The notes beneath the pieces were generated by a model, which was given only the letters and a program-made list of their open reading frames with translations, ran no database searches and was not told the DNA's origin. From Flectonema sp. DT1601 (lineage: Eukaryota), in assembly GCA_964019425.1 (NCBI GenBank), contig OZ025793.1, positions 1,240,001 through 1,304,000 on the forward strand: 64,000 bases of DNA, read 5' to 3'. This document shows, one piece after another, positions 32,886 to 63,299 of the stretch; the stretch's first letter is position 1, and each line of letters begins with the position of its first letter. A program made the translations under genes and the position numbers.

Positions 32886-33389
32886 TGTATTCAAGAAAAC
32901 TGTTTTTTTTTTTCTGGTTACACTCGTCTGTGCTACCAAACTCTTTGTTTTTGTTCTTTTCACTTCTATGTTTTGTCTTTCTTTAATACTTTCTTTTTAA
33001 CTTAAGTCTGACAAATTGGAAAACACGGGAAACATAGGTAGGCTCCGCCTGAGGACGTAAGAAGAGCGGCAACGGAAAAAATAAATGGTCACGCGTCCTT
33101 GAAATTGGATACATGAAGCTAATTCGGTTGCCATTCCTACCATCGATAAGGAAAACAAAGAGTCGAGCATATAACTAGAGCGGTGGTCAAAGACCACTTG
33201 AACAGCCCGAAGGCCTGCCCTCAAGAGAAATTTATAAGGAGAATAGGAGAAGAAGGAGACAGGAGTGTTGGATGAGACACTGCTACAACACCGAAGGTGA
33301 TGTGCAGTTACCCAACCAGGAGATGATTGATAATGATGAAAATACTAAAATAATAACAAATTGATATTGGCGACTACATGTCACCTACT

Positions 33390-36300
33390 TTACTTCCAAA
33401 GTCTAAGGTTAGATGTTTGTTCCATCCACCTTATGATCAACGCGAGTGATGGAAGCCACGCCAAAGTGAAGAGAGCTTCAAGGTTAGGAATTTCGTTGGC
33501 AATAATAAGTTCTCGATCGCGATCCCACTTGCCGGTCAGTGTTGAGAAGCCCAGGATTTTGAACCTGGCAGAGTCGAGTTTGGGAGATTGACATCCCTGC
33601 AGCAGGTGAACCTGTGAGGACGGTTCGCCACAAAATGGGCAGTCGATCGTCTTGCGCCAGTTCTGAATTAGCGGGTGACATCCTGTCCGGAAGTTCGCTA
33701 TCCGTATCTCGTCGGCTCTTTCCATCCCAGGAGGGTATTTAACGGAACGGCCTCTGATGAGGTGTTTGTAGCAGGTGTAACCACTCACGTTAAGCAGATC
33801 CTTTTTGATGCAGCGCTTCACATGTGATGATCGCGAGAAGTACGTGCCTTTGACTAGCACAGGTCGGATGTTCTTGTTGTGCGCTGCTTCCTTTGCAAGC
33901 GCGTCAACTTCATCGTGAAACTCGATTCCAATGTGCGAGGGGATGAATTGCAAATGCACTTTCATCTCACACATGCGCAGGTATTCCAGTATCTTGAGGG
34001 ACTCGGTATTCCTCTGTCTGCACCTTCCACCCAGCAGTTCATCCAGAAGGGATTTTGAGTCCGTGAATATCCTCACAGATTTCATTGAACGATCTTTGCT
34101 AAACACTGTTCTCAGATGTCTAGCCGCGTTCTTCAGAGCATGTTGTTCAGCCCTGTAGCTGCAGTCAGCTTGATAAAGCCTAGACGCGTAAGCAGATCGA
34201 AGGCCGCTACGTGACTTGGCAATATGAGCCGCACCGGCCGCGCCGGAAGCAGAGTAGGAGCCATCGCAGTTGATTACCATGTCGACAGGAGGCAACGTTC
34301 CAATGTACGACATGAACTTTTCTTTGTCCACCGCAGGGTTCGCGGACTTCGGAAATCCGCAGCTGTTGCTAATCCTAAGGTTCGTCGGAGATACCCAGGG
34401 TTCCATCGAGTCAGGCTGCACAAGGCACTGGCTTTCACGCTGACTATCAGTGCCAGGGATTAGGCCAGCCCAGTAGCTTTGTGTTGAGGCGAGTCTGTTT
34501 GTATTAGGTATCCAAGTCATGGCTTTATACCGGTAGTACGCAATTTTTGTCTGCTTTTCAATCTGACGTTTAAAAGGATACATGTCAGACTCCCACAACA
34601 GTAACTCTCTTGGCGTACACTTGCTGCATCCAGTAACCAGTCTGGCGACCTTCCTCAGTTCGAAGTCGATGCTGTCAACGCTGCTGCTTATCAGCCAACC
34701 AAAACTGTCAAGCGCATACGAGATTCTCGCGGTTACATAAAGGTTCTTAACCATGTTAAGAGTCTTGTAGTCCAGTTCGTACGGCTGGAGGCACTGCAGA
34801 AGTGATATCCCCCTCTTTAATTCTTCGTGAATCTTGCCTACTTGTTTGTGGAAGGTGAGCCTGTCGTCGATGTGAACCCCGAGGTATTTTACTGAGTCGA
34901 CTATCGGTAACAGAAAGGCAGTTTTGAATATTGTTCTCACAACCATAATGCTGTCCTCACGAACGACGTATTGCAGCATCAAGTTGTCGAGTTCTTCTTG
35001 TGTCTTGATTGGGATTCCTCCAATTTCAAGAATAGTTTCGCCACTTTGAAGCATGGGTCTGGGTGATTTGAGATTGATATGCTTCTCGATGTCACCATAG
35101 TCAAGTTTAAGCATGCGTTCCTCAACAGATCTAGAGAAAAGCAGTTCGCGATTACACGTATCGTTTAGTACTATGCCCTTCGAGCGAACATTCATCTTAA
35201 GCGCACAGGTTTTGGAGACTGATAAGGCCATGTCGTTTTCAAAACACCATTGATCCACTTTGTCGAGTACTAACTGAGCATTCGAAAGAGCTTCTTCCAT
35301 GTTTGATCCTGACACCACACATGCTGTGTCATCCGCATACAGAGCAGACGTCGTTGTTTCCTTCTCTAGTTCCAAAATCTTGCAGAGGTCATCAACGTAG
35401 ATAAGATAGAGAAGAGGACCCAGGATCGATCCCTGGGGAACCCCCTTAGCCAGAGTACGGAATTCGCTAAAGTAACCATTCGCTTCAACTCTAACCTTCC
35501 TGTTTGTAAGAAAGTCTGTGATCCATCTGATAATAACATTCGGAACACCCATCTTTACTAATTTTAATAAAAGTATCTTATGGTTGATCCTGTCAAACGC
35601 AGCAGTAAAGTCGAATGACAAGAACACTGATCTCTTTTCTTCCATGTGGCTCCTTACGATAGCATCTACTAGAACGGTGATCTGCTCGCAGGTATTTCTC
35701 CCCTTTCTGAATCCAGCCTGTAGTGGGCTGAGCGACGAATGTTTTGTGAGCCAGTGCATGAGTCGGTCATACACGAGCCTCTCCGCAAGTTTCCCAACAA
35801 CCGAGGTGAGCGTTATTGGTCTGAAACTCTTTAGTTCATTACGAGGTTTCCCTGCCTTGAACATGGGCTTGATTAGTCCCTGTTTCCATTGGTACGGTAC
35901 TTTTGAAGTCTTCCAGGAAGTGTTAATAATTCTCAAGAGGTATTCCACTGTTGCCGGAGTGAAGTTTTTGATCATCTCATTGTGAACTCCATCAGGTCCT
36001 GCAGCCTTGCGGGTCTTTAGGTTCTTAATCGCAGCTTTAATTTCAGCCATTGTGAAATCACAGCAAATATCTATTTCATTATCACCTTCTGAGAGTGCGG
36101 GGGCCTCTAGCGATAATATTTCCGATTTCGAGACAAACAGGTCCAAGAATGCTGATGGTAGATCGCAGTCAGAGATGTTGTTGACACTGATATCTTTACC
36201 GGCATCTTGCTGCAGTTCTTTGATCTTCTTAAACGCAAAGGCAAAGTTGTTACCCTTGTCAAGTTGATCACGTAGGTGGACACCCTTCGATTTGGTAGAA

Positions 36301-37301
36301 TCAGGGGTTGACGTCTTCCACTTTCGTCTCCGTTTCCCTTTGAAAAGGAGACGTCGACGAATGAATTTAGCCGCCACTTCATGCAGTATGTTGTTAAAGA
36401 GCTTGGCATTCGCAGTTGCATCAACGGAGAGTCTTGATTTTCTAATTCTCTTTTCGAGCATGGTCCCAAAGCAGTTCCAGTCCGTAGACTTGAAGTCCCA
36501 TACAACGCGTTTCTTCGAACCTATCGTGGCCCGTGCAAGTTGGCACATGGGATCCAGTACGGTGTAGAGAGGTCGATGATCTGACCCATGTTTATTATCT
36601 TCTTCAATTGCACTAAATTCTTCAAGAACCATCGAGTTTGAAAAGAATACTACATCTGGCGAGGTACCACCCCCCGGGACGTCAGGAAAAGGCCTTGTGA
36701 TTGACCCCATCTTGTTAGCAACCAGTAGATCATTTTGAGCTGCCCATGCATGTAGAGTTGAACCTGCTCTCGTCGATTTAAGTGACCACACCGGATGATG
36801 GGCATTAAAGTCACCCGCGACGATTGCTTTCGTTGAGACTGGAAGATCTGACTCTCTGATCATGCATCCCGGGGGAGCATAAACATTGATGATGTCAATC
36901 TTTCCACCTATGTTGACCTTCACGACCTCGACATCATTTAAGTGTGGCGGAAGCTCCATGTTCAAACGCTGCTGAGTGTGGCATTTTTTCACCATAGAAA
37001 TAACCCCTCCACCTCGTGTTGCCCTATCATTCCGATAGGTGAAATAGTCCGTGTGCGAAATTACATCATTCGTCCAAGTCTCCTGTAGGCACAGTACGTC
37101 AGGCGCATAGGCATTAAGCAGCTTGTGAATATAAGCGCCTTTGTTCCCCATCGATCGACAGTTCCAGCTCAGTAGAGATATGAGAGAGTTGTCAGGGCCA
37201 GGGTTGCGTTCGACGTCGCCTGCCTTTAGCAGCAGTTCACGAGCCGTATCCTTTTCCACAAGTGAGTTGGTCGGACTGAGTTCATCCTCATCGTCATCTA
37301 G
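33390..37301 (-). CDS. A1 ORF2: acidic linker, 2A peptide, AP endonuclease, RT, RNase H, C-terminal CCHC
   Basis: GDVERNPGP; SWNCRS, LQETW, GDFNAH, SDH; GVPQGSILGP, YADD; DGS, FTDS, HIGIEFHDEVD; CPFC..H...C. Confidence 0.95.
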   Translation of the reverse strand, partial: LDDDEDELSPTNSLVEKDTARELLLKAGDVERNPGPDNSLISLLSWNCRSMGNKGAYIHKLLNAYAPDVLCLQETWTNDVISHTDYFTYRNDRATRGGGVISMVKKCHTQQRLNMELPPHLNDVEVVKVNIGGKIDIINVYAPPGCMIRESDLPVSTKAIVAGDFNAHHPVWSLKSTRAGSTLHAWAAQNDLLVANKMGSITRPFPDVPGGGTSPDVVFFSNSMVLEEFSAIEEDNKHGSDHRPLYTVLDPMCQLARATIGSKKRVVWDFKSTDWNCFGTMLEKRIRKSRLSVDATANAKLFNNILHEVAAKFIRRRLLFKGKRRRKWKTSTPDSTKSKGVHLRDQLDKGNNFAFAFKKIKELQQDAGKDISVNNISDCDLPSAFLDLFVSKSEILSLEAPALSEGDNEIDICCDFTMAEIKAAIKNLKTRKAAGPDGVHNEMIKNFTPATVEYLLRIINTSWKTSKVPYQWKQGLIKPMFKAGKPRNELKSFRPITLTSVVGKLAERLVYDRLMHWLTKHSSLSPLQAGFRKGRNTCEQITVLVDAIVRSHMEEKRSVFLSFDFTAAFDRINHKILLLKLVKMGVPNVIIRWITDFLTNRKVRVEANGYFSEFRTLAKGVPQGSILGPLLYLIYVDDLCKILELEKETTTSALYADDTACVVSGSNMEEALSNAQLVLDKVDQWCFENDMALSVSKTCALKMNVRSKGIVLNDTCNRELLFSRSVEERMLKLDYGDIEKHINLKSPRPMLQSGETILEIGGIPIKTQEELDNLMLQYVVREDSIMVVRTIFKTAFLLPIVDSVKYLGVHIDDRLTFHKQVGKIHEELKRGISLLQCLQPYELDYKTLNMVKNLYVTARISYALDSFGWLISSSVDSIDFELRKVARLVTGCSKCTPRELLLWESDMYPFKRQIEKQTKIAYYRYKAMTWIPNTNRLASTQSYWAGLIPGTDSQRESQCLVQPDSMEPWVSPTNLRISNSCGFPKSANPAVDKEKFMSYIGTLPPVDMVINCDGSYSASGAAGAAHIAKSRSGLRSAYASRLYQADCSYRAEQHALKNAARHLRTVFSKDRSMKSVRIFTDSKSLLDELLGGRCRQRNTESLKILEYLRMCEMKVHLQFIPSHIGIEFHDEVDALAKEAAHNKNIRPVLVKGTYFSRSSHVKRCIKKDLLNVSGYTCYKHLIRGRSVKYPPGMERADEIRIANFRTGCHPLIQNWRKTIDCPFCGEPSSQVHLLQGCQSPKLDSARFKILGFSTLTGKWDRDRELIIANEIPNLEALFTLAWLPSLALIIRWMEQTSNLRLWK

Positions 37302-38960
37302 TCAGTTGAGATCAAAGTCCGAATCGTTACTTTCCATTTCTACGTCACGGTTTTTATCACTATCCTGCTTAGCAGCAGATTCGGTGGGCGGTGTTGTTGT
37401 TTGTGCTGTTGCTGGTGCTGGCGTTGGTGTTGGTGCTGATGGTGCTGGCGCTGGTGTTGGTGCTGATGTCGGCTGCTGAGTTGGCTGTTGTGGTTGAGGA
37501 GTTGTTTTTTGTCTCTTCAGGGTTCCCGTTAGTTTTTGAGCCGCGTCGCCTGGGTTGTAGGTTGGGCCTAGCGGTTTTCTGTCAGTTCGTTTAACTTCTT
37601 TGTTTATCACAAGGTATTCATTAGTACCTATGCTTATGAAGTTGGGCGGTTGAGATTTCGCAATTGCAACAATTGTAGTACTCCCTCCTTTATGGAAAGA
37701 AGCAACAACTGTGTGTTCCCAGTTGTGTGAGGACTTCAAGAAGTCGCTGATCTGCGCTGTCGAGTACTTACGAATCGCCATCGAATTTATAACAAACCTG
37801 TCGCCCGAGGGCAGTGCAGGCTTGATTGCCGCGTTGAGCTTAATGCTGACCCTGATATTACAGTCAGGGTGGACTCGGAGTCCAAAACAGCTTTTAAACC
37901 TGCACATGTAGAATTTTCCTTTGAATTCATCAAGTGCAGAAGTCTTGGACTTCGCTGCCAGGAAGCCAAGGTCGTTTTTGAATTGCAACGTTGGCCAAAC
38001 GTCACTTCCGTTCGACCAACTCGGGTTTCTGAAAAAGACATTCTTGGGTTTGTCAGTTTCGGGTTCGCTGTTGTTGTATTCCAGAACCTCGTGTACTTGG
38101 TTTCTGGGGACTCTGAAAGCCATCGAGGTGTGGGACTCGTTCTTTCTGTAGCTAAAGGGGTCCGCCTTTATCTTCAATTTCTTTAGAATATCGGTCGTTT
38201 TGACGGTCAATTCTTTCTCAGCTGATTTACCCCAGTCTTGGATGAATAGAACTGGGTTGGGAGTTGGAATCTGGTGGCTAGTTGCTGCTTTAGAAAAGTC
38301 GTCACCAAATACGTGCGTGTAAAATACGCGCCTGATCTCGCAGACGCCACCCTTTTTTATCACCGGTAATGCTACTGGAACGGTGCTCTTTGTGAGCGGG
38401 ATTTTGCTGATAGCAGCCCAACGGCCGCTCTTCTTTGTTTGGCGGAGTGCTTCTAAGTCTAGCTTCGAACGAACTAAAACAAGACCAGAGGTAAGGTTGT
38501 TTGTAGCATTAGCTGCTACGTCGTAACTGATGGTGGCCACAGCGCCTGCCCACGCACCGTGAATGTGCCACTCCGGGTAGCTTGCTTTTGCCTTTCCCTT
38601 CGTGGTTTGATTGTCCTTCATTGCTGTCGGTATCGGCAATGAGAACGGCTTCGTACTCGTTTGTTGATTAGAAGCTGTAGATGCTCCTGTAGTTGGTTGG
38701 TTGACACCTGTAGTTGAGGGTGTCGTCGCTTCTGCTGCCGTCGTCGCGGTCGCTTCCGTCCCACCACTCCCATCGAGTGTGTCCGGTGTCCTCCTCTTCA
38801 TCTCCGGGTTCCCACCTTCTGACCCAGCTACGAATTGAACGATCTCCATTAGGAGATTTGCCACCCTTCTTTCCTTCTCTTGCTCCGGGATCCCGTCTTC
38901 TCCCACTATCTTCAGGAGGTTTATTGCCTCCGATACCAACCTCTTCAGGTTGTCTCTCAT
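37302..38960 (-). CDS. A1 ORF1 (552 aa from first ATG), ending in TGA-CTAG
   Basis: Open frame; its C-terminal half is conserved in copy A2. Confidence 0.85.
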   Translation of the reverse strand: MRDNLKRLVSEAINLLKIVGEDGIPEQEKERRVANLLMEIVQFVAGSEGGNPEMKRRTPDTLDGSGGTEATATTAAEATTPSTTGVNQPTTGASTASNQQTSTKPFSLPIPTAMKDNQTTKGKAKASYPEWHIHGAWAGAVATISYDVAANATNNLTSGLVLVRSKLDLEALRQTKKSGRWAAISKIPLTKSTVPVALPVIKKGGVCEIRRVFYTHVFGDDFSKAATSHQIPTPNPVLFIQDWGKSAEKELTVKTTDILKKLKIKADPFSYRKNESHTSMAFRVPRNQVHEVLEYNNSEPETDKPKNVFFRNPSWSNGSDVWPTLQFKNDLGFLAAKSKTSALDEFKGKFYMCRFKSCFGLRVHPDCNIRVSIKLNAAIKPALPSGDRFVINSMAIRKYSTAQISDFLKSSHNWEHTVVASFHKGGSTTIVAIAKSQPPNFISIGTNEYLVINKEVKRTDRKPLGPTYNPGDAAQKLTGTLKRQKTTPQPQQPTQQPTSAPTPAPAPSAPTPTPAPATAQTTTPPTESAAKQDSDKNRDVEMESNDSDFDLN

Positions 38961-39018
38961 AATTGCTTTTTCCTGTGAAACGTACCCACTGATTCTTACC
39001 AATATTAGGTTGCGAAAT

Positions 39019-39034
39019 CAATAAAGTACAGAAA
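39019..39034 (-). other. spliced-leader remnant at the 5' end of A1
   Basis: Reverse complement is TTTCTGTACTTTATTG, the 3' 16 nt of the Leishmania/Diplonema-type SL exon. Confidence 0.85.
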
Positions 39035-47290: not shown

Positions 47291-47357
47291 TGCAAAAGGT
47301 TTATTTATTTATATTGTTTTATTTACTTTATTCAAAAAAGAACTTAAAAGGAAATTC

Positions 47358-48313: not shown

Positions 48314-51300
48314 CCTGGAAAATGGAAAGGGAAAAAAGGAAAGAAAGGAACCAAGGGAGAGAGCGGTAAAGGAAAAAAAACTGTTTTGTCACCACCGTCA
48401 ACCTCAGTAACCCCGTCAATAGAACAAAACGGACATTTTAAACCAGCTAAAATTATTATTAGATGCACAAACAAAGCATCTAACAACAAAGATCATTGGC
48501 ACTTTTCTAGCCGATGATCCGAAAAAGCAAGCAGAAGCTTGGGATGCGGAATTAAACCCGCAAGAAAAAGAAGGTTTTCAACAAGGATCGATGGACGAAG
48601 ACATCGATCTTGTGAAGCTGAAGCTGGACAAAGAAAACAGTGATAGTGATGACAACACAAAAAGAAAAAAAGAAGAACCTCCGAATTGACTGTTTCCTTA
48701 TAATTTTTATCTTTTTTATTTCTCGAACCTTCTTTTGTGTGGAGACATCCACCCGAACCCGGTCCACAAAAAAAGCGGGAGGAGATTGTTAAAGTGGAAG
48801 GAGGAGAACGGTAAGGAAGTCTCACAGGCGGTAACAAGCACACACGAGAAAAATATTGTGCCTGAAACCACCACGGAGCCTACCATGGACCATGACTCAG
48901 ACAAGATGACGTCAGACTCGAGCTCGATCTGCTCCCCACCGACACAAGAAGACCGCCCCCCCAGTAGGGATGTGTGGGTGCGGAAAGGAGATACCGCAAG
49001 CAGCGATCAAGAATCCGGTGAAACACCCGACGAAGGGATGGTGTGATAGGTGTGGAGAGCGGATCGCGAAGGGAACACGGGTAGTCATGTGCGTGAAGTG
49101 TGACCACGCTGAATGCTGCGGATTGTTGGAGAGATCGCGGCGTGGGAAAGAGAAGAGGAAAAGGAAATCACGGGGATCGCGATCGAAAAACGATGCCATG
49201 TGAGAAGCATGAAACGGAAAGTGAATGAACGGAAAAAATTAAATGTAAAGAAGTGAACTTGTAAAAAATGTAAAGAAGCAAACATGTGAAAAGAAAAATG
49301 AAAAAAAAAAGAAGAGTGAAAAGGAAGACAGAGTTGTATGTAAACTGTATGTAAATGTAAGAAGAAAGAAAAAACACGCTGGAAGTGGGAGTGCAACCAT
49401 CAGCGCAAACACAACCACAAATATTGTTTTTTTTCCTTTTTCTTTTCTTCGCTTCGGCGACAGATATGGTAGGACCTAGAAAACCGGCCCAAAACTTGTG
49501 TTGCAGTTTATCTTTTTAGCGCACACTCATGTAACATAAGGATCGCTGGTTCCGAGGGTTTGCTCTCCTGCCATACTTGCCTCTCACCTGCCTCAAAAAA
49601 AAAAAAAAGCAAAAAAACAGTGAGTTGAGAATTGTATCTTTTAATGTTTGTGGTCTCAAGTCGAAATCCGACGAAATAACTTTTTTTTACAAAATATAAA
49701 ACCTGACCTATTCATGGTTCAGGAAACTTTGTTAAAGGATAACGACGAAACCATTAATTTTAATGGGTACAAGTGTCTCAGAAGAGACCGGAGAATTCCG
49801 GTAAAAAAAAACGCACCCGTCAGAGGTGGTGGATTGGCAATTTTTTACAAGAACAGCCTAAGCGTGACGTCACAGCTGTTGCACAACACAGCCAAGACTG
49901 CACTGAAGTCCAGGGCATTTTGTGTCAAATTCAAAACAAACTGTAAGGGTATACAACGTGTACAGACCACCGGTAAGCCAATCAACCTCTGATAGGTCCC
50001 CCTCTTTTGATATGAATAGTATTTTTCTTTTTAATAAAAATGATAAAGTAGTTATCGCGGGGGATCTTAACGCAAGGCATCCACTCTGGGACCCGAGAGA
50101 CGAGTCAAACACAAATGGCCATGAAGTCTCGACTTTTCTAAACAATAACCAGTTTGAATGCTGCAACGTTAAGGAAATCCCCACAAGACCAAAATCAAAC
50201 ACTTCTCCTGATGTTGTTCTCCAAAAAAACTGTGATATTGGCAACTGGACGACGCTCGAATCTCTATCAAGCGATCATGTACCAATGTATTTTTCTCATT
50301 CTTTTTTTTCGGATTCGATAAACAGAGCGAACGGTGCAACGGTTTTTTCTTATAATTGGAACAGGGCACTGTGGCCAAACTACAGCTCCCACCTCGAAAG
50401 GGTGGCGAAGCGACTTGAAAAGATTCAAGATAACCAGAAATTATCAATGGAATTCATAAGAGAATTAAAAAATGCGCTACGGATCTTTGTACCAAGGATT
50501 TATTTGAAAGGAAAGTCACCAAAGAAGTGGTGGAACACGACGGTTGCATCTAAGTTTCATGAGTTCAACGAGTCACATTGTGACAAACGGGATGATCTTA
50601 CAGATCTGTCGCAACAGGGAAAGTCAATTTTTACATCTTTAAAAAAAGAACTCAAAAAAACAGTCGTTGATGCCAAGAATCAACAGTTTAAAAAAAGCCT
50701 TAAAAAAGACAAGTCTATTATTGAAGCTTTTGAAGACATAAGAGGCCTTGATGGAAGATCAAGGCTTAAAGAAATTCGAGAAATCACCTGTGGTGATAAA
50801 CTTGTTACAGATGATGTGAAAAAAGCATCAATTTTCAATAATCAATTTTTACAACGTGTTGGTAACATCGAAGAAAAAACAAAGACAAAGAAAATAGAAA
50901 CAGACCCTTCTGATTTTACACCATTTACACAACATGAACTTAGAATCCAATTGAGAGGAATGGCTCTGGAAAAGAACTCACCAGATGGCGTTCAAGGTAT
51001 TCTTCTTAACCATTTGGGACCTAGAATGCTAAACATTTTACTTAAGATTTTTAACAATTCGTGGAAACATTCTGTTGTCCCGAGTGATTGGAAAGACACA
51101 CACTGGATCCCTGTTTTAAAAAAAGGAAAACCCCCAAACCTCCCCTCTTCATATAGAATGATCTCTCTCACCCCTTTTATTGCGAAATTGATGGAAAGAA
51201 TGGTGAAGGAACGTCTTACGTATTTTATGCAATCACCGAATGAAAAGAAAACTGACGGTATTGGTTTCAACCAAACTTCTTATCGGAAAACGCGTTCTTG

Positions 51301-53234
51301 CCGGGAAAACATCCTATATGTTACGGACAGACTTAGATTTCTTAAACACCAAAAAAAGTCAGCGGCCCTTGTTCTTCTTGATATAGAAAAAGCTTTTGAT
51401 AGTGTGAACCATGATCTTCTCCTTCAAAGGATGGTAGATCTTGGAATACCAAAACATTTTATAGCCTGGATTCAGGCCTTTCTTAAAAAACGAAGAGCAG
51501 CGGTTGTTGTTAATAATGAAAAAAGTTCTTACCACAATGTTTATTCTGGCGTTCCACAAGGAACAGTTTTGTCGGCTCTACTTTTTACTCTGTATATTGA
51601 AAAAGTAGCAGAGAGACTAGATATTACGGTTGCTAAGTATGCGGATGATATTGCTTTTGTAGTTGATGATGAAGGGAAAGGTTTTACTTATCATTTGGCA
51701 AAAACGAAATATTTCTTTAATGAGATTGAAAAGGATCTAAACGAATTAAAATTAAAAGTAAGTTATGAGCCTGACAAAACAAAACTTGTGTATTATCCCT
51801 ACTCCCCAAATTCCCCACTACAAACACCTTTCACTTTTACTTCAAATTTAACAAAAAATATTGTTCCATGTGTTGATAGCGCCAAGCTTCTTGGGGTGAT
51901 CCTTGATAACAAGCTCGATTGGAAACAGCATATCTCGTATATTTGTAGAAGAGTTAATCTTCGCTTAAGGTATCTGAAGCTTGTCGCATCAAAAGCATGG
52001 GGACAGTGTACTGCTACTTTGCGTGAGGTGTATGATTTATATATTCGACCTGTCATACCAAACTCGTGTGAAGCTTTTTATCCTGAAGTTAGGTATAAAA
52101 AGATTCACATGGACAGGCTTCTCTCTTTACACCTTAGGGGTGCGTGCTATGTTTTAGGTGCCTTACCACCAACAAGGGAAACAAGAGATAAGATCTTTTT
52201 TGAGGCACAGCAACAAAGTATCAACACCCATTTGAGACTTGAAACTGGTAGATGGTTCGCCAAAATGGCGCGAATCACATCCCCTTTATTAAATGTCTTT
52301 ATTCCACCTGAAAGAATATCCTCAACACCCATTGATTCTTTTACTCGTTTAGGAATGAATGTTCTGAAAGAACACAACCTTCTATCACTCAGTTTTGAGA
52401 AATATCCCATTTACGTTCATCCTCCATGGAGTTTTTCAAATGATTTCAATGTTTTTAAACCAGAAATGCATGTTAGAAAAAAAAAAGACAAAAAGAAAAA
52501 TAAAAAAGCCTGTGAAGCTGTTCTTAATGAAATAAGGAAAGATTATGAACCAGTCTTAGAGGTATATACCGATGGTGCCGTTGTTGAAGAACGCGGTGCT
52601 GCGGGTGTGTGCATCATAGACAGCGAAGGAAACGAATTTCTCACAAACAAAAGTGAAGCAGGAATAATCTGCACCTCTTTTAGGGCTGAAATGATGGCGA
52701 TCAAAAACGCTTTTGTTTTACTTTTTAAGGAATTTGAACCGCCGGAAAATGCGTCAGTTTTATTTGTGTCAGACTCCTCCAGTGCCTTGATGGAACTGGA
52801 AAAAGGGGGAACAAAACAGAAAACGAGACTAGGAAGCCGCATCTGGCAGTTTATTGAATTTTTCAACAATAAATTCAAAACAAAGTTTATTTTCCAGCAT
52901 GTCTTTTCTCACTGTGGTATTGTCGGAAACGAAGAAGCAGACAAACTAGCCCAAAACATTTCATTAAAAAAAGATGAAGAAACCCTTTTAAAACAAAAAA
53001 AAGTTCCCATAGACTACAGCACCCGTGTAGCTAAACTAAAACACAGAATAAAAGAAAAAATTGACCCGTCCTTTCCCATCTGAAACTGAAAGAGCGGAAG
53101 AAATTCTGATTTCACAACTCAGAATTGGCGACTGTAAACAAACACAAGGGAAATGTCCTAGGTGCAGAGAAAAGGACTCTGTAGAGCATCTTTTAGCAAA
53201 ATGCTCAAAGTACAGAAAAGAGAGGAGGATGTAT
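48314..53234 (+). mobile_element. family B copy B2 (ORF1 end, TGA, 2A-like motif, Cys-rich region, APE, RT, RNase H; frameshifted; 3' end interrupted)
   Basis: LLLCGDIHPNP, SFNVCG, VQET, GDLNARH, SSDH, YADD; frameshifts near 48760, 49650, 49900 and 53065. Confidence 0.9.
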
Positions 53235-53910
53235 AGGCGAAAGCCGCCGGTACCGAACTGGTCATTGGCCAGGCCCCTCTTCACGGACTGGAAGTCCCTC
53301 CAGGGTATGTTGAAAATCTAAAGACCACACCTATATGGCGTCTGGTTTTTTTGGGGGGGGTCTGGTTGCAGGTTGTGTGTCCTGCTTCGCGGGGGCTTTG
53401 GTCACGTTTCCAACCTCGCTCCCGCCGTTTTTTTTGAATACTATTTTAAGCTGTAACGGGCTACAGGGCATGGGGCGCTCAACCTGTAGTACGTGTCCCC
53501 CGAATCCCCATATTCGACAGCACATATGGGATTTTTTATCGATACCAACTGTTGATTTCTTATATTGCAACCAGGTTTGGCCGAACCCTATTCTCGTTTT
53601 TGCCAGTTTCAAGTTGCTTTCATAATATTAGTATCAAGTTACCTCCCTAGAAATATTTTTTTTCTTTCTAAAAATTTCCTAAATATTTATTTGATTTTGA
53701 AGTGTAAAGAAATAGTTTTTATGCTGTAACGGGCTACAGGGCATGGGGCGCTCAACTGGCCCCCGAATCCCCATATTCGACAGCGCATATTGGATTTTAT
53801 CGATACCAACTGTTGGTCTCTTTTCATTGCAACCAGGTTTGGCCGAACCCTATATTCGTTTTAGCCAGTTTCAAGTTACTTATATTTAATCGTGTCAAGT
53901 TACCTCCTGC
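53235..53910 (-). mobile_element. repeat C element: two tandem ~200-bp units plus a GC-richer coding-like remnant
   Basis: Units at ~53450-53647 and ~53723-53907; a third copy lies in the intron at 3864-4360; strand is tentative. Confidence 0.6.
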
Positions 53911-54188
53911 AGGTAATATCCCAGACTTGCCCCCTAATTTAATTGGACACCAACCTGCACTAAAGTGATTTCTGTTTTTTTCTTCAAAATCATAAGTTGG
54001 TAAGGCATCTGAACTGCAGCACAGCTTATGCCCAATGTACTTACACTAACATTTGGAACAATGGACGGCACCAAGTTGTTATCGGAGGTTACAATCTTTT
54101 TAGTATATCACATCACTCCTAATTCGTCTCCTAATAACTCTCTGAGGACATTCGTAGAGCTTTATGGCTCGTAGGTAACCGTCCGAAT

Positions 54189-54332
54189 TGATCATTAGCT
54201 TTGTATTTACAGGGTCGTGAGCTTCCTATCCGGGGAAGTCCTCCAACGGACTCACATAATTGCACTCGTTGTTGCTTATTTACTTAGTTATAAAATAAGA
54301 GGAGCGAGTATGCTCAGAAAGTAGAAAGACAG
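54189..54332. repeat. structured dispersed repeat D, copy 2
   Basis: Homologous to 41781-41940. Confidence 0.75.
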
Positions 54333-54386
54333 GAGATTAATAAATGTTTATTTGTTCAACCCCCGTAGCAGACCTCCCACTCCTTT

Positions 54387-54398
54387 TGTACTTTATTG
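54387..54398 (+). other. spliced-leader remnant upstream of the 1177-aa ORF
   Basis: TGTACTTTATTG ends 16 nt before the ATG at 54415. Confidence 0.7.
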
Positions 54399-54414
54399 AA
54401 ACCAACACATTCCA

Positions 54415-57400
54415 ATGAGCGAAATGGAGGCTATGACCCCCCTGAAAGACATTATGAACTTCAATATTAAAATGGTGAAGAAGGGTTTTGGAAGTGATCG
54501 TGTATTCGATAAATACAAGGATGTTAAGGAGGTAATTGAGAAATTTGCAGGAGTAGGGGATAAAGCCGCAGAGATGATATTGGAAAAAAAACCAATATCA
54601 ATAGCATCTGACTTTCCTGACAGAGTAGCTGAGATCACCATCGAAGGGAAAGAGCTGAAGCTGTTAGCACCTCATTCCTTTGTTGAGGGATGGGTTACTG
54701 CTTGCTCAGAAAGCAATTGCCCTCCTGTTTTCTATTCTCTGTATACGAGGAAAGTAAAAGATGAGTTAGACTTCATGCTCTTCGACAGCAATATTCCTGT
54801 TCTCACACTGATTCAAAAGGACCGTGAGAACGACAACATCCACTACTTCGATGGAATTAAAGATCACTTCAAGGATGCCATGAGGGATGCCGTACATGAC
54901 AAAACGTTCTTTGTTGTACTCCCGAGGAAGTCTCCCGGGTGCACTGCCGCACATGAGTTCCTACGACTACTGTATCTGACTCTGAGGAAGGAATGTAGGA
55001 ACGACAGCATGGATCTCTTTATACTCGCTGATGATGACATCAAGGGTTCACGTTGTCACGTTCGGAATGAAGTGGGAGAAAAGTTCACTAAAAAGACTGC
55101 GGATGGTAAGATCTCCGATTTGGTGCGCAACCTTACAGAGTTTGTGGATCAACTTGATGAGAAACCCCTCGTGTTGAGTCTGAATCGTGCCCACACTGCA
55201 CTACTGCTTCCTACTATTTACAATGAACATGGTGATCCTAATCCCCCAAGGAGAGGGACAAAGTCTGATTCGTTTCTTCTGATCCACGCACGCGACAATA
55301 ACATAATTAGCAATCTTCCGTTCTGTTCCTCCAGTCAGCTCTTGTTGGATGATGACACGAGACAGGTATTCAAGTGGTTAGTGGGAAATACGAAGAGCGG
55401 AATGGAAGTATTAGAGATTGAGATAGAAGGAAAGAAGATCGATGTGAAGGCGACCAGGATATTCTCGCAGTTCGAAGACTACTTCTTCCACATGTTGCTC
55501 GCACACACGAACAAAATTAAGCCGGGTTTGCCACGATCATGGATGATTGCGGGGGCGAAACTCTTAAAGTCTGATTCAAAAGGAAACACGACTAACATAG
55601 AAAATGATGGCTTAAAGGTAGCACAAAATAAACTAATACCCTATTGCCGCCTGGCATCTATGCTGCAGATCGATCCGTTTATTGAAAAAGCCAACAAACT
55701 AAAAGTACAATTAAGGATCCTTGATGGCAACGAAGACGCATTTTCCATCCGACAGTTTTTTCTTCGAAGAATAAAAATTGAACGAGTTTCTGCGAAATTA
55801 TTTCGGCCGGCTTTTAAGTTACCACTGATACCGTTGACTATGGTGTTGTGTTTTGCGGTGTCTGTGAATGTATTTCACTTTACTACTGAACAGATGTCTG
55901 ATTACGTTGGCGCAACAATACTTGCACACTTAGGAGCAAGGTTTATGACTCTTATTTTCGCAACGATGCCAATCCTTTACGTCTTGGGTGTGATCCACAA
56001 AGTTATTAGAGATTTTATACGTGGGTTTGATTGGCGCAGCCCAATAAAAAACAAATCTCCTACGGGGAATAATCTTTCATGGAAACCGAGCGCAACAGAT
56101 TCGTATAAGTTTAATTTTGAAATCGCAGACGGGTATACTAAGAATTCCATAGTCATAACACGGGAAGGTTGTACTCTAAAGCTGAAGGAATCTGCTCTAA
56201 AGAAATGGAACAAAGGGATTCAGGAAAAAAACCCTCTCTTCTTCGACTTGGGGTTTGATAAAAACAGAAATTCGTGGCAACTAACGGACCGCCCGATACT
56301 TGTGCTCACGAACTTCAAAATACCGATGGACAAACATGCCCTTTACGTATTCAGCAATAAGTGTGTCAGTTGCGGGAGGTGTAATGAGCTGAAAGCGTGT
56401 GAAGAATGCAATCAGAAAGAATGCGAGTGCACGAGTTGCGAGAAATGCAAAAAGCAACTATGCAAGGAGTGCCGGTGGTGTGATTGTGAGTCGGTGTCAA
56501 TAACTAATGCACAGATTCTACGCTTGATATTCTTTATTATGGCTGCACACCAACGAGGCAGAAGTTCATCTGAAAACAATCTTTTTAATCCGATCAGTCA
56601 ATTCGTTATCGCGGAGGAATGTAGTTTTGAGATACCTGTTTTTAATGACGACGAGTTAGATTTCACGTTGCGGGGTGCACCTGAGCACGTGGTGGTGGAA
56701 CTATTTAAACAGAAGCAAAGTGACCTTGTGCTGTCATTCTCGGACGTTTCCGGCAAGCGACTTCCTGTTTCCCGCATTCAACACCACGAATTGGTACTGA
56801 AAACTATCAGAGAGGAGATTGAAGGAACTCTTAAAGAAAACACGAGCAGTTTATTTCAGCAAAAACTTAAAGATTACACTTCGTCGTTGTCCATGAAAAA
56901 TAAACAAGATAGAGAAGTGGAGCGTCGAGAAAGAAAAGAATCAGAAAGACGGGCAGTTGAGGAATGCAAACGTCAGGCGAGAGAAGAGGAGGAGCGCCAA
57001 AGGCAAGAAGCCAATTGTCGAGAAGTGGAACGTCGAAAGAGAGAAGAATCAGAAAGACGGACAGCTGAGGAATGCAAACGTCAGGCGAGAGAAGAGGAGG
57101 AGCGCCAAAGGCAAGAAGCCAATTGTCGGGAATTGGAACGTCGAATGAGAGTAGAGGAGGAGCGTCGAGAAAGAGAAGAATCAGAAAGACGGGCAGTTGA
57201 GGAATACAAACGTCAGGCGAGAGAAGAGGAGGAGCGCCGAAGGCAAGAAGCCAATTGTCGAGAAGTGGAACGCCGAAGGAGAGAAGAGGAGGAGCGTCGA
57301 AAGAGAGAAGAATCAGAAAGACGGGCAGTTGAGGAATACAAACGTCAGGCAGAAGAGGAGGAGCGCCGAAGGCAAGAAGCCAATTGTCGAGAAGTGGAAC

Positions 57401-57948
57401 GTCGAAAGAGAGAAGAATCAGAAAGACGGGCAGTTGAGGAATACAAACGTCAGGCAGAAGAGGAGGAGCGCCGAAGGCAAGAAGCCAATTGTCGAGAAGT
57501 GGAACGTCGAAAGAGAGAAGAATCAGAAAGACGGGCAGCTGAGGAATGCAAACGTCAGGCGAGAGTAGAGGAGGAGCGCCGAAGGCAAGAAGCCATTTGT
57601 CGAGAAGTGGAACGTCGAAAGAGAGAAGAGGAGCACCAACTGCAACTGCAACAACAGTGGATTCTACTACGGCAGCAAGGACAGTTAAGGCAGCCTCGGT
57701 GTTCATATGAGAATGAATCTAGCTCTGATGACGGATACGGAAATAGCTGCTCTAATAATTACTCATCCCCACCTTCGAGAACATCACATCCGGGATCATC
57801 ATGTTCGAGAGGTCAATTGCAAGGAATGTCAATCTCAGAGTTGCGTACGTTTGTCGGACAGAACGGACTCGATGTTCGCACGAATACTGGTGGGTATGAA
57901 TGTCGGACAAAGAACGATATCGTTAATGACATTTTGCGTGAGATCTGA
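54415..57948 (+). CDS. intronless multidomain protein: putative GT-A (TAGT/GREB1/JGT-like) glycosyltransferase, two TM-like segments, Cys cluster, charged repeats, SAP/HeH-like C-terminus
   Basis: VVLPRKSPG, FILADDDI, FEDYFF; CxxC series; MSISELRTFVGQNGL. The ORF is clear; the domain call is by eye. Confidence 0.65.
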   Translation: MSEMEAMTPLKDIMNFNIKMVKKGFGSDRVFDKYKDVKEVIEKFAGVGDKAAEMILEKKPISIASDFPDRVAEITIEGKELKLLAPHSFVEGWVTACSESNCPPVFYSLYTRKVKDELDFMLFDSNIPVLTLIQKDRENDNIHYFDGIKDHFKDAMRDAVHDKTFFVVLPRKSPGCTAAHEFLRLLYLTLRKECRNDSMDLFILADDDIKGSRCHVRNEVGEKFTKKTADGKISDLVRNLTEFVDQLDEKPLVLSLNRAHTALLLPTIYNEHGDPNPPRRGTKSDSFLLIHARDNNIISNLPFCSSSQLLLDDDTRQVFKWLVGNTKSGMEVLEIEIEGKKIDVKATRIFSQFEDYFFHMLLAHTNKIKPGLPRSWMIAGAKLLKSDSKGNTTNIENDGLKVAQNKLIPYCRLASMLQIDPFIEKANKLKVQLRILDGNEDAFSIRQFFLRRIKIERVSAKLFRPAFKLPLIPLTMVLCFAVSVNVFHFTTEQMSDYVGATILAHLGARFMTLIFATMPILYVLGVIHKVIRDFIRGFDWRSPIKNKSPTGNNLSWKPSATDSYKFNFEIADGYTKNSIVITREGCTLKLKESALKKWNKGIQEKNPLFFDLGFDKNRNSWQLTDRPILVLTNFKIPMDKHALYVFSNKCVSCGRCNELKACEECNQKECECTSCEKCKKQLCKECRWCDCESVSITNAQILRLIFFIMAAHQRGRSSSENNLFNPISQFVIAEECSFEIPVFNDDELDFTLRGAPEHVVVELFKQKQSDLVLSFSDVSGKRLPVSRIQHHELVLKTIREEIEGTLKENTSSLFQQKLKDYTSSLSMKNKQDREVERRERKESERRAVEECKRQAREEEERQRQEANCREVERRKREESERRTAEECKRQAREEEERQRQEANCRELERRMRVEEERREREESERRAVEEYKRQAREEEERRRQEANCREVERRRREEEERRKREESERRAVEEYKRQAEEEERRRQEANCREVERRKREESERRAVEEYKRQAEEEERRRQEANCREVERRKREESERRAAEECKRQARVEEERRRQEAICREVERRKREEEHQLQLQQQWILLRQQGQLRQPRCSYENESSSDDGYGNSCSNNYSSPPSRTSHPGSSCSRGQLQGMSISELRTFVGQNGLDVRTNTGGYECRTKNDIVNDILREI
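56915..57632 (+). repeat. coding tandem repeat, ~38-aa unit (ESERRAVEEYKRQAREEEERRRQEANCREVERRKRE)
   Basis: About six near-identical units seen directly. Confidence 0.9.
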
Positions 57949-58818
57949 TAATAAATAAAAAAAGCGAACGCATTCAAAAAAAGAATCGGCAAACTTCACT
58001 TTTTTACTTACTCACTCACACTTTTATTTGTGAGCAACCTGTAGAAAATCCTAATAAAGGAATAGGTTAGTTACACTGCTACAATTCTCTTTCTACCGAA
58101 CAATAGGTTTCTAAGTACAATTTTTTTTTTCTTTTTTCAAAAGTATTTCTCTGTGAAGAAGCAATGGAACAACCCACACTCGTCGTCGTTTTCTCTTTTC
58201 TTTTGTGAAGTGTGTTCCCTTGCTTCCAGACTTTCGAATTTCGTTCTCTGATTCTTCTGATCACCTACCCTCTGGAATTACCTGGTAACTAACGAAGAAA
58301 AGCCTAAACCCAATCATCCCCTGACAACTCGTTTTTATTCTTGACCTTCATTTTATTTTGCTTTCAATTTTCTTTCCGGCTGGAACCGTTCGTGTACTTA
58401 TCTCTCGTTAGAACAGGTCTGCGCCAAATTCTTTGGTTCTCACACTTTTGTATTTAACGTGGTTGTGCCTACAAGTGTCGTGTTTCTTCTTAATTATTGA
58501 TGGAAAATAAGATTATCTCCCCATCAAGTAATCCCCTTTGCAATGGATAGCTTTTATTTTTGGATACCAGCACGTACTGCTAAGGATTTGGTTTATTCTT
58601 GGTTGTCATTGTTGTTATTGTTTCTATTTATTTTTTGATATAGCACACTGCTACATCATGTTGTTATGTTTCGCATCTAATTCTCACCAATTTGTGTGGA
58701 ATTGATAGATGTCATTCTCACTCCCCGTTTTTATTTTTCCACTCCACTACCAACAAGTAGTCCCCGAATTACCAGAGTCGACAACGTCTTCTGGACAATA
58801 AGACAAAGAAATATATAT

Positions 58819-60932
58819 CAGTCATTCTTTTTTTTTGCGACCAAATTCTAGACAATGAAAAAAAATTTCAAAAAGAAATGGTAAAAATTTCGATCGAAGC
58901 GGCATTTTAATGCTCTGCATCGTTCGGTTCATTTCCGTCCGAAATCTGGAGGTTGGCATCACACCCGAATTGAGAAAGAAATTTTGTGGTTTTCTAGATC
59001 AGCTCAGCCGTGGACAAGTACCAAAACTAAAAATTAATCGAAGGGTCTAATTTTACACTGTGGCCAAGCGGGATCCAGAGAAAAAATAATCGAGCAAAAA
59101 TGTATTAAAGAGTACTAAGCATGTGCCGGTGAAGCAGATTGTTACTACTAGTCTTTTTGGACCTACTTTGATACTTAATGAAAACCGTTGTACAACACTT
59201 TCTTAAGATGAAGTCACAACTTATGATGAATTATGAGCTATCTGAGCCACATGAAGTGATATCATCATCATCATCATAGCTAGTGCTGATGGAAGAACTC
59301 TCATACTCGGAAAGTGCTGTCTGACTCCTCAGTAGTGCTATCTGACCCCTCGGAGGTACTACTTGGCGGGTGAGATTTGACTATTTTATCCAACAGATCC
59401 CTGTATTTGCTCACAAAGATCGTAGTCACCTCTGATGCAGAGGGTGCAAAAGCATGAAACGGCGTGATATCCCATTGTAAAGTCTTGTACTTCATTTTGA
59501 TAACCCCTCACTAGCAGCGGAAGAAGAAGTTACTACGGATACCGGTCAAGATTATCTCCCCGTGTCAAGGGGATATGTCGGTAATGTCAGGTAGTAAATT
59601 AAATACTTGGGTTTGGAGGAATCAGCGATAGCCATCTCTAGTGCGGGCAACTTCAAAAAGAGATTTCGCATCACTTATTTCACCTGTCAAGTTGTAGCGA
59701 TGTGCAGAGCGCTCAATGTCAAGAGCAACCTCTTCAATTGGTAGCCCTCAGAATCTCATGGTCCCTTACCATGTCCTGTAGGAAAGCAGTCCCATGTTAC
59801 ATCTATATCTATTGCTGCCATCCAGTCAAGCATGTATTTAACTTTGAAGCGATTACCTCCATCGCTAAATGTGAAAGTGAGCAAAATCATCCTGCAGCGT
59901 ATCCAGCAAGTGTGACAGAGCCTTGCAGACAGCTGGAAAAGTCTGACTGAGATTGTTTGATATATAATAGTGAGTAGTGTATTGAATTATCCGTGTGATG
60001 AAAAGTCTGAGTGATTGCAGGTTTGCTGCTTAAGCCTTTTTATTACTGGTGTTGATGGAGGGTCCCTCTTGCACTTTGCGGCATTTCGCAAGTGCGAATA
60101 ACACGTAGTGCAAATACAGTTTTCAGGGAACCTGAAGCTTCCTGTAGCATGCGAGATGCCACCTGCAGTGGCAACGGGTTAAGCTTGGTATCCTACATAT
60201 ATTCCGTGGTCTCAATGAAATGAAATATGAGTAGGATACCTCACTGCGATATTTGCAGTACTCGCTCCAAGCATGTTGATACGGGTGTCTGCACCACCTC
60301 CTAAAGACTTTAATTCTTTCCCCGTCTCTTATTATCCAGCGTTCTTTGCGTGACTCGTCTGGTTCTGATGCCTCGGACATCCACCATTCGGTGATATCCT
60401 GAGTGGGGCTCCGGTTTCCTGATTTACACGAGGGCGTAGTTGGTGATGGTGACACGTGACTCAGAAGTAACATTCTCAGCACGTCGAACCAATGTTTTGA
60501 CAACTACTTCAGGGAAGCTTCCAACAAGTGGGCCATTATCACCACCACAGACGCAACATTTTCCTGCATAATTGCTACTAGGGTTGATTAGTTAGTAAAA
60601 AAGTGCATATTTCTTGAGTGCGGGAGGGGGGGAAAAAATAGTAAAAAAAAAAATTAGGGGTGTTTTTTACTCAGATTTTCTCGATCTTTCCATTCCAGGT
60701 CTGGGATTAATATTTATCATATAGTAGTACCAAGGAAATCTTGCAAAGAGACGTTTATCTCTTTTTAGCAGCACTTATCATGTTTAAAAGTATATCCCTA
60801 TGTCTAATTTTACAGATCGCACCCTCCCCGATTCCAAAAAATAAAAAAATCGAGCAAAAGTAACATATCGTGTAACCTTGCTCAGGCGGTGGGAAAATGG
60901 TGTTTTTTGGTCGCAAAAAAAAAGAATGACTG
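58819..60932 (-). mobile_element. decayed DNA transposon with perfect 27-bp TIRs and ATAT flanks (Sola-like, tentative)
   Basis: CAGTCATTC-T9-GCGACCAAA at 58819-58845 and its reverse complement at 60906-60932; broken minus-strand coding remnant YF.SLRP...CHCRWH. Confidence 0.8.
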
Positions 60933-61371
60933 ATATTTCCCTTTTGTTTCCTGTTTTTGTAAACGTAACTTTTCTTTGATGAGCAGCTACAAATATTTTT
61001 TTCAGTTACTGTTTTTATGTTGTCAAAGTTTCCTATACCTAACTTTAGTCAACTGATTATAAATTACTAATGTTAATTTACTCTGCATTAGAAATCTTCT
61101 CAAACTGTTATTCACGCGCGTGAAATGCGACTACGCGGAATGCTGGAGAGATCGCGTCGTGGAAGGTTGAAGGAGAAGAGAAAAACAGAAACTCTTTTTT
61201 CTATAACAGTTCAACGTTATTATCAAAAACCTTTTTCCATTTATAAAAGAGATCTAATATTCTCCATTTATTTATCTTGCTTTTTCATATCGGGTGAATC
61301 CTTAGAGATGGATATTCGCAATGTTCATTTGGTTCCTGTTAAACTTTAATTCCAGTTATGTATTTTAACAT

Positions 61372-62373
61372 ATGGCGATACTGACATTGTTAGTGGCTGT
61401 TTGTGGGACTGTAATCATTCCTTTAGGAGATTCAATAACTCAGGGGATTTCACCTTACAATTCTTATCGCAAGTACTTGTGGGAAATGTTGCAGGACAAC
61501 AGTAAGGAAGCCAGGTTTGGGGGCAGTAAGTGGGGTGCCTGCGCGCTGGGGAAGCCGTGGAAGCAAGAAGTTACACCTGATTTCGATCAGAACCATGAAG
61601 GTCACTGTTCTATTGATACGAGTAGTTTACTGCGGCACGTGAAACGTACACCCAAGGAAGAGATGGTTAAAATTAATTCTACATTCGGTCATGAAACTGT
61701 AACCATCAATGACGTAGGTATTATATTACTGCACACTGGTAGTAACGACATTTTCGATGTTGTCAGGAAGAAGAAAAAGTTGCAGTCACTGAATCGTGTG
61801 GTGGATCAAATTAACTTGCTGGTTGACCACTTGCTGTCAACTTTCCCGAATTCAACAATCTTCGTGGCGCAGATACTCAAAACAACTTACCCTGATCAGA
61901 CTGAGTATTTAAATAATCGAATTAAGACTCATGTGAATGAAACTAGTAGAGTGCGTCAGGTGACTTTCCCTGACTTCACCACTGAGAGGCACACGTTTGA
62001 CACTACGCATCCCAATAATCTCGGAGCTCGTTATATTGCTGAACGCTGGTACGACGTTATTTACCCTTTAGTTCCAACACGAGTCTCGCAGGGCAGCACA
62101 CCGATGAAATCAAGTCAAAAACAAACTGTTGTGACTCCATCCGAGCAGAATGGTCGTGTCAACGTTGTGCCCGATACAGTGGCATTTGCGGATATCAATG
62201 TCTCGTTCTCTTTTGTAATTCCGTTGGCCATATATATTCTTCAACTTCTTGGTTGTATAAAAAAGGGATGGGTTTTAACTATGGCTTACGGATTTATCTT
62301 GTCGCTGTTATATATTACGTGGGGATTAAGCAACACCGCATCGTCTCAAGTGAAGCTGCAGCAAGCTGGTTAA
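61372..62373 (+). CDS. secreted or membrane-anchored SGNH/GDSL hydrolase
   Basis: Signal peptide, PLGDSITQG, HEGH, HTGSND, DTTHPN, two C-terminal TM segments. Confidence 0.88.
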   Translation: MAILTLLVAVCGTVIIPLGDSITQGISPYNSYRKYLWEMLQDNSKEARFGGSKWGACALGKPWKQEVTPDFDQNHEGHCSIDTSSLLRHVKRTPKEEMVKINSTFGHETVTINDVGIILLHTGSNDIFDVVRKKKKLQSLNRVVDQINLLVDHLLSTFPNSTIFVAQILKTTYPDQTEYLNNRIKTHVNETSRVRQVTFPDFTTERHTFDTTHPNNLGARYIAERWYDVIYPLVPTRVSQGSTPMKSSQKQTVVTPSEQNGRVNVVPDTVAFADINVSFSFVIPLAIYILQLLGCIKKGWVLTMAYGFILSLLYITWGLSNTASSQVKLQQAG

Positions 62374-63299
62374 CAAAGCAACGCAGGTTTCTTATGGTTA
62401 ACAGTGCTGCAGCTTCTGTAATTTATTGACTCATGGGTTTGTGGTGCACTCAAAAAAAAAAAAAACTATGAAGGAAGTTGATAAGACAGAATGAAGTGTA
62501 GAAACATAACTAAGCCCCGCTGAGCTGAGTAATTCCGTGTTCATAACGGGTTTCCCTCTGATTTGAGTGGGAGATGAAAGGGGAATCAGTTTCTGGTTAT
62601 TATGGAACTGATTTGAACCTTAATAATATGCTACACTAGAACCGGTTAGTTAATTCCTTATTTCATAACCGCCTCTACTGCGTACATACACTGTTGAAAT
62701 AATTTCTGTTTCCATTGAAGTTGCATCCATAAAAATTACTGTTATTGATAAACAGAGGACCAAGCCTTGGATACAGATGGCAGATTAGTATTGGAGCTTC
62801 CCGTCTGGAGGTCTTCAGCGTAGTGAGAAGCTGATCCATCCGAAACAACGGGAAGACCTTGTCCCTCCAAGAGTATGTTGTACATTATTCGGTAGGCTGC
62901 CTTCGCATCACTTGTTTCTCCGGTTATCTAACATGATGATCACAGAAGGCTCAGAAAAAAGAGAACGCGCTACGCACCCAAACGGGGACAAGCCTGAAAA
63001 CAGCTGTAGTGGAAACTGGCTGGTCCAGTTTTCTGCCGAATGTCGTCTTTCCCGACATTTCATCAACTTATTGTCATCAATTTTTAGTTTTTCTGCGGTA
63101 GAAACTCTTCTTCCGTCTTGCTCCTTGAAATGTCTTAGCCAACACTAATAATCTAATCATTGGCGCGAATATCCAGTACTCCCAGTATACGCCAAATTCT
63201 AGATTTGCTTCAGTCAAACGATTCTATAACGTGAAGGTGAAAAAAACGATTTTTCTTTTTCTTAGCTTAAACACCGTGCCACCAGATTTAACTCAGAAT

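Follow-up and report, generated by a model that had tools for sequence, protein, structure and literature searches.

A likely retrocopy of a trans-spliced mRNA, marked by a spliced-leader relic, near a LINE nest in Flectonema sp. DT1601

We describe here a gene in a 64,000-nucleotide stretch of DNA from Flectonema sp. DT1601 (assembly GCA_964019425.1, contig OZ025793.1, positions 1,240,001 to 1,304,000 of the forward strand), the whole of which we call the window and number from its first letter. An intact, intronless open reading frame (ORF) is preceded, at the distance of an ordinary 5′ untranslated region (UTR), by the 3′ end of a spliced leader. We consider it likely that the gene is a retrocopy of a trans-spliced mRNA, probably written by the reverse transcriptase (RT) of a host long interspersed nuclear element (LINE), and that it has kept the last 12 nt of the leader. 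The locus and its flanks are laid out as follows.

54189..54337 (+): dispersed repeat in decay, with 81% identity to 41781-41920, a possible insertion target
54338..54345 (+): candidate target-site duplication of 8 bp, 5′ copy (the other at 57949-57956), not significant (chance 0.05-0.12)
54367..54371 (+): two AG dinucleotides behind a pyrimidine-rich run, read from the sequence as a candidate trans-splice acceptor that lies 13-16 nt ahead of the relic
54384..54398 (+): relic of the spliced-leader 3′ end, by match to the Diplonema sp. leader (PMC3795323)
54399..54414 (+): 5′ UTR of 16 nt, without AG
54415..57948 (+): intact single-exon ORF, 1177 amino acids (aa) from the first ATG (54415), TGA stop at 57946-57948, by ORF reading
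57949..57982 (+): A-rich stretch abutting the stop, by sequence reading: an 8-mer (also at 54338-54345), then two A7 runs

A sequence-only reading of this DNA had pointed to a leader sequence directly ahead of a 16-nt UTR and an intronless 3.5-kb ORF, and this description is confirmed. The Diplonema sp. leader is 39 nt long with the 3′ end CAGTTTCTGTACTTTATTG (PMC3795323); positions 54387-54398 are identical to its last 12 nt (12/12), and 14/15 positions agree over 54384-54398, a 15-mer present once in the window, on the + strand. The 12-mer is matched exactly twice in the window, where 100 shuffles gave a mean of 0.01 and none of them (0/100) reached two, and the chance of finding it 60 nt or less upstream of a given ATG is 5e-6 to 9e-6 (Markov orders 1-4), or about 1e-5. 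When one mismatch is allowed there are three matches, all in the repeat-rich half of the window (32801-64000) and none in the core gene cluster; two of the three lie at the start of a long coding unit and on its strand. Nine host genes, inspected by eye, have their pyrimidine run and AG 7-28 nt ahead of the ATG, and at the relic gene the end of the leader occupies that place. On these sequence matches we conclude that the leader relic is real and that it fits the leader of the host's lineage.

That lineage is, on sequence identity, classical diplonemid (euglenozoan), since the Atg3 encoded in the window is closest to that of Flectonema neradi (84% identity; Rhynchopus euleeides follows with 61% and Diplonema papillatum with 55%). 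The genes of D. papillatum are transcribed together in arrays, and practically every mRNA bears a spliced leader (PMC10161547). Introns are present in only about 41% of its genes (PMC10161547), so the intronless state of the present ORF is weak as evidence of retroposition. Ordinary eukaryotic genes, on the + strand throughout, occupy the opening 32 kb of the window, followed by a tRNA-Ile gene and then by a LINE nest. In an Rfam scan of the window this tRNA-Ile was the sole match to reach the gathering score, and 47000-64000 held no convincing RNA; a leader RNA gene was thus not found in the window.

Retroposition of leader-tagged RNA is best seen in a neighbour of the gene, one of two further relic-bearing features, which serves as a positive control within the window.

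32903..39029 (-): full-length LINE with ORF1, an ORF2 with apurinic/apyrimidinic endonuclease (APE) and RT domains, and a leader relic at its 5′ end (39030-39019), by domain search and junction reading
62410..62428 (+): third leader relic, decayed (17/19 nt), followed by 23 nt and an A14 run; 0.05 matches expected at 3 or fewer mismatches

The LINE reads in order relic, 59-nt UTR, ORF1, APE-RT ORF2 and A11 tail, with a 9-bp target-site duplication (32894-32902 and 39030-39038) placed exactly at both junctions. It probably illustrates a trans-spliced retrotransposon more cleanly than the gene illustrates a trans-spliced retrocopy; as it joins relic, A-tail and duplication in one insert, trans-spliced RNA is evidently retroposed in this genome, and as its 5′ end carries the same 12-mer, the host leader very likely ends in that 12-mer. 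The duplicated 9-mer resembles the leader sequence immediately upstream of the relic, which suggests that microhomology may have guided the 5′ join.

Other observations on the LINEs and relics are recorded here in their own right. Both long copies of the relic-headed LINE have ORF1 and ORF2 in the same frame with a single TGA between them (37302-37304 and 46451-46453, - strand), and in both a 2A-like motif lies about 30 codons past that TGA, ahead of the APE domain; this suggests stop read-through combined with ribosome skipping as the putative mode of translation. A second LINE family (APE-RT-RNase H) is present in two copies on the + strand, at 38993-41750 and about 49600-53234, which are 99% identical over 1991 bp; one is 5′-truncated, and the other is frameshifted near 53083 and cut off at 53234. 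The nest begins some 10-20 bp upstream of the tRNA-Ile gene (32812-32902). The third relic, with its 23 nt and A14 run (62410-62466, +), lies 37 nt past the stop of a GDSL lipase gene and has the appearance of a miniature retrocopy. Strings resembling TTCAA(G/A)AAAA recur at several junctions (32890, 41757, 57973 and, reversed, near 53430), possibly a common insertion preference.

For the gene, the following course of events would account for the relic. A parent belonging to the small diplonemid family described below would have been excised from a polycistronic transcript, the 39-nt leader being joined to it at an AG that stood 16 nt ahead of the ATG. LINE machinery would have primed on A-rich sequence right behind the stop codon, possibly within the A-rich tail of an older repeat, and copying would have run nearly to the cap, halting inside the leader. 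The copy could then be spliced again, through the upstream AG sites, to an mRNA bearing leader plus relic; it would need no promoter of its own because its orientation is that of the surrounding + strand gene array and AG sites lie just upstream. The parent would since have been lost or have diverged, or would be absent from the gene calls.

Several observations weigh against this account. The exact leader match extends over only 12 nt, and it is made to the Diplonema sp. leader and the 5′ end of the window's LINE. No parent was found: the 90% protein cluster of the gene product has one member on one contig, two of 5270 near-length protein candidates scored (the product itself and a lipase-like protein, P0002), and none of 3883 shorter candidates did. 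These searches for a parent or copies covered called proteins, the word-based one taking in proteins up to 2060 aa, and in the 50% representative library a close parent would hide inside the query's own cluster; DNA copies were looked for within the window, which holds no second copy of the gene. Viral contigs, metagenome contigs and prokaryote genomes yielded no related loci. The parent foreseen in the sequence-only reading, with an AG in place of the relic, is thus missing from the called proteins, as is any close paralogue. We note that among relic-tagged retrogenes of dinoflagellates a parent has been paired for just 6.4-9.8% and most are orphans (PMC6050394), so that orphan status is common in that group.

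The 3′ end and the junctions are likewise unlike those of a textbook insertion. The 8-bp duplication candidate could arise by chance (0.05-0.12) and would leave 38 unexplained nt ahead of the relic, and no target-site duplication was found at the relic junction itself; the duplication anticipated for a retrogene is therefore without a significant candidate. Repeats of 7-8 nt of the relic-junction sequence further downstream were rejected as duplications, no A-run preceding them. The poly(A) runs within 950 nt of the stop are just A7, A7 and A8, against tails of 11 to more than 20 on the window's LINEs, and a copy that stops at the stop codon with no recognisable 3′ UTR is unusual for a retroposed mRNA. 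The A-rich sequence said to follow the ORF is present, but it consists of two A7 runs (57957-57963 and 57976-57982), and as such runs, of seven or more A, number 58 on the + strand of the window, it does not clearly qualify as a poly(A) tail; it represents either a site of internal priming or the tail belonging to an interrupted repeat. Excising the sequence between the two 8-mers would restore a similar A-rich repeat tail, and the related repeat copy at 41781-41920 terminates in such a tail. As to position, a LINE end does lie nearby, but the gene stands outside the nest, 1.15 kb past the cut-off LINE end at 53234, with two decayed dispersed repeats in between. One dispersed repeat of the window is dimeric, of about 270 bp, and occurs at 53444-53907 and 3863-4366; a 320-bp insert splits the copy near 3.9-4.4 kb. 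What stands of the retrogene proposal, then, is the real relic and a window LINE that combines relic, A-tail and duplication, while a parent, a significant duplication and a long poly(A) are missing.

Alternatively, the relic might have reached the gene by way of DNA, as the 5′ fragment of some other leader-tagged insert, whether the start of a LINE or a short retrocopy, that landed or recombined beside a gene moved or newly arisen by rearrangement in the repeat-rich zone. Leader-tagged inserts are close by (39030 and 62410), the flank of the gene is a patchwork of decayed repeats, the ORF is composite with one piece in common with a lipase, and it lacks a poly(A) or a significant duplication of its own. 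We nevertheless hold this to be unlikely: the relic sits at exactly the normal 5′ UTR distance, in the place of the AG, and the 16 nt behind it match no other repeat of the window.

A second alternative would make the gene a multi-copy, non-autonomous retroelement or passenger, trans-spliced and reinserted time and again by LINE enzymes rather than copied once; we regard it as quite unlikely. In small samples, the codon use of the N-terminal and middle parts of the ORF scores -0.03 and -0.05, host genes ranging from -0.02 to 0.11; it is like that of a LINE (LINE A) and unlike that of most host genes. The C-terminal parts of the family vary, two of its three D. papillatum paralogues fall into one 90% cluster, each on a 381 kb contig, and one relative comes from a non-diplonemid metagenome bin. 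Against this, the protein collection holds one member on one contig, no second copy exists in the window, and the family members of D. papillatum among the matches number only three. The suggestion of a mobile passenger gene made in the sequence-only reading gains no support from the locus, as the ORF encodes no RT or transposase, matches no Pfam domain and is enclosed by no terminal repeats, the single long perfect inverted repeat in the vicinity (58815-58845 / 60906-60936) being downstream of the gene and not around it. That repeat is itself of some interest: its perfect 31-bp arms flank 2.1 kb of decayed, stop-riddled sequence (58815-60936), possibly a dead DNA transposon.

Finally, it is very unlikely that the 12-mer is a chance match ahead of an ordinary single-exon gene, for although it is short and AT-rich, a single match somewhere in the window has a probability of 0.01-0.02 and single-exon genes are common in diplonemids, the position-specific chance is about 1e-5 and the window holds three relics, one of them at the 5′ end of a LINE with a clean duplication.

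The product of the putative retrocopy is assembled from several parts.

54463..55677 (+): N-terminal domain, aa ~17-421, belonging to a small diplonemid family; GT-A fold predicted; by HMMER, alignment and model
55771..56043 (+): hydrophobic piece of two helices, aa 453-543, sharing 74% identity with part of the multi-pass class-3 lipase-like P0002, by alignment
56359..56487 (+): Cys-rich cluster, aa 649-691, without family match, by sequence reading and domain search
56912..57629 (+): in-frame tandem array of 105-132 nt units encoding a Glu/Arg-rich coiled coil, by repeat analysis
57826..57945 (+): C-terminal module of 40 aa; its one lead, a weak one (E 0.21), is the C-terminal part of endonuclease VII

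Seven sequences matched at E<=0.001 in a HMMER search with aa 1-828 against 1.84 billion representatives. Two were the protein itself and P0002; the other five are related to the N-terminal domain and comprise a D. ambulator sequence originating from a transcriptome, MBB20826.1, an unnamed ENA protein and, from D. papillatum, DIPPA_10271 and DIPPA_19223 (DIPPA_19183 belonging to the same cluster). The supplement of the D. papillatum genome paper annotates DIPPA_10271, DIPPA_19223 and DIPPA_19183 as hypothetical and gives DIPPA_10271 as a diplonemid gain shared with the species coded Sspe. MBB20826.1 (P0128) comes from a bin labelled Rickettsiales, and P0129 is a second non-diplonemid member of the family. 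The bin may be a mislabelled giant virus, and virus-host exchange is possible; a pithovirus-like genome has been misannotated as a Rickettsia (PMC6520786), and the bin might be linked to it.

Across six aligned family sequences the motifs SPG..AH, DDD, D.FLL and Q.EDY..H are kept, and D206-D208 and E354-D355 are invariant (6/6), in the order seen in phage TAGT proteins. A fold model from a seven-sequence alignment reached a predicted local distance difference test score (pLDDT) of 64.6 and a predicted template-modelling score (pTM) of 0.74, the single-sequence model being unusable (pLDDT 31). In structure comparison the best match had Z 10.8 and a root-mean-square deviation of 3.4 over 186 aligned residues; 76 of 48161 chains had Z>=8, and nearly all of the structural matches listed were GT-A or nucleotidyltransferase folds. 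Foldseek, too, ranked glycosyltransferases at the top. Among viral models the TAGT label was carried by 5 of 15 matches at E<=0.001, rank 1 included (E 8e-7), with low query TM-scores of 0.28-0.39, and among Atlas matches by language-model features 23 of 30 fell in TAGT clusters (best 0.91), the top three being unnamed clusters.

Sequence methods gave no such likeness. Pfam, PF20691 included, had no match for the ORF or the five relatives; against a profile of 10 phage TAGT proteins the ORF scored no better than 2000 shuffles; hhalign against TAGT-type profiles returned probability values of 0.5 and 0.2; when the domain was run by tblastn on phage records every hit had E 5 or worse, and sequence searches of the PDB found nothing significant. 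Aligned by eye, the invariant Arg of TAGT appears as His. By prediction, the N-terminal domain would work like a GT-A sugar transferase, and its nearest predicted structural likeness may be to DNA glucosyltransferases of the TAGT/base-J type, though TAGT sequence profiles fail. TAGT, the base-J glucosyltransferase and GREB1 are related (PMC7968844), and because GREB1 acts on protein and not on DNA, the candidate substrates stay several. Taken as a whole, the gene product would act as a sugar transferase, membrane-anchored or scaffolded, on a DNA base, a protein or a glycan.

As regards the remaining parts, the hydrophobic piece shared with P0002 (73/98 columns identical; 91 aa) is missing from all five family relatives, so the gene is composite, and the codon use of the piece is more host-like than that of the N-terminal and middle parts (small samples). 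Homology of this piece to the membrane hairpin of DIPPA_19183 was rejected, as out of 2000 shuffles 98 reached its score. For the middle region (aa 548-835) the Atlas offers no usable match, and the C-terminal module may resemble DNA-binding modules of the HeH type. Elsewhere in the window, a long ORF at 23683-27897 (+) has many DDLPDFLKP repeats followed by what, read by eye, may be a SPRY-like domain.

Taking the locus and its cargo together, we may speculate that promoter-free trans-splicing combined with LINE retroposition moves genes, and LINEs too, in diplonemids; that the cargo here belongs to an undescribed family of DNA-base glycosyltransferases related to base-J and TAGT enzymes and shared with a possible giant-virus bin; and that such a retro-mobile enzyme could write a J-like mark which alters where polycistronic transcription stops. 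We hold this scenario to be unlikely. If leader relics are marks of retrocopies in diplonemids as in dinoflagellates, a scan for the leader motif could date and count retroposition in a marine protist group that is among the most abundant, independently of intron loss, and LINEs would exploit host trans-splicing in place of an internal promoter, contrary to the reports on trypanosome L1Tc/ingi. The modelling also gives a diplonemid family hitherto annotated just as hypothetical a predicted GT-A fold, perhaps nearest to the DNA-base glucosyltransferases.

No report of leader-relic retrocopies in diplonemids or kinetoplastids was found in the literature excerpts covered, the D. papillatum supplement text on repeats, leaders or base J possibly lying outside that scope, and the excerpts of PMC7789003, PMC6053224, PMC9546926, PMC7049700, PMC7052976 and bioRxiv 2026.09.29.755400 contain nothing on diplonemid cases. 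Euglenozoan footprints of reverse transcriptase are discussed as intron loss (PMC11613528).

Turning to the systems that resemble ours, the N-terminal domain is like TAGT, JGT and GREB1 (PF20691; PMC7968844) in its predicted GT-A fold and in the order of its motifs, an acidic triplet behind a strand and, further on, an ED motif, and unlike them in matching no profile, in the His that replaces the invariant Arg (by eye) and in some 100 extra N-terminal residues; the gene product moreover adds fused membrane, Cys-rich and coiled-coil parts. The window LINE resembles trypanosomatid L1Tc/ingi in being an APE-RT element with a 2A-like motif ahead of the APE domain, L1Tc having a 2A sequence; it begins with a leader relic, whereas L1Tc/ingi transcripts are reportedly unspliced and driven by the internal Pr77 promoter (PMC1874656). 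For its part, the gene shares with LINE-made processed retrocopies an mRNA-shaped 5′ end, the absence of introns and a setting among LINEs, and differs from them in having no long poly(A), no clear duplication and no recognisable 3′ UTR. Such retrocopies typically show an mRNA-shaped 5′ end, no introns, a poly(A) tail and a target-site duplication. TAGT was reportedly defined in a computational paper of 2013, and dinoflagellate retrogenes with relic spliced leaders are said to have been described by Slamovits and Keeling in 2008. The closest parallel is with the relic-leader retrogenes of dinoflagellates and Perkinsus (PMC6050394), which like our gene have a DNA-encoded remnant of the leader 3′ end at 5′ UTR distance, an intact frame and, often, a missing parent; here the host is a diplonemid with a 39-nt leader, there are no tandem relics, and there is no sign of the relic serving as a promoter, a function that would be unneeded in a polycistronic genome. 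Leader-relic retrogenes are thus already known in dinoflagellates, and the diplonemid case would be a further member of that class.

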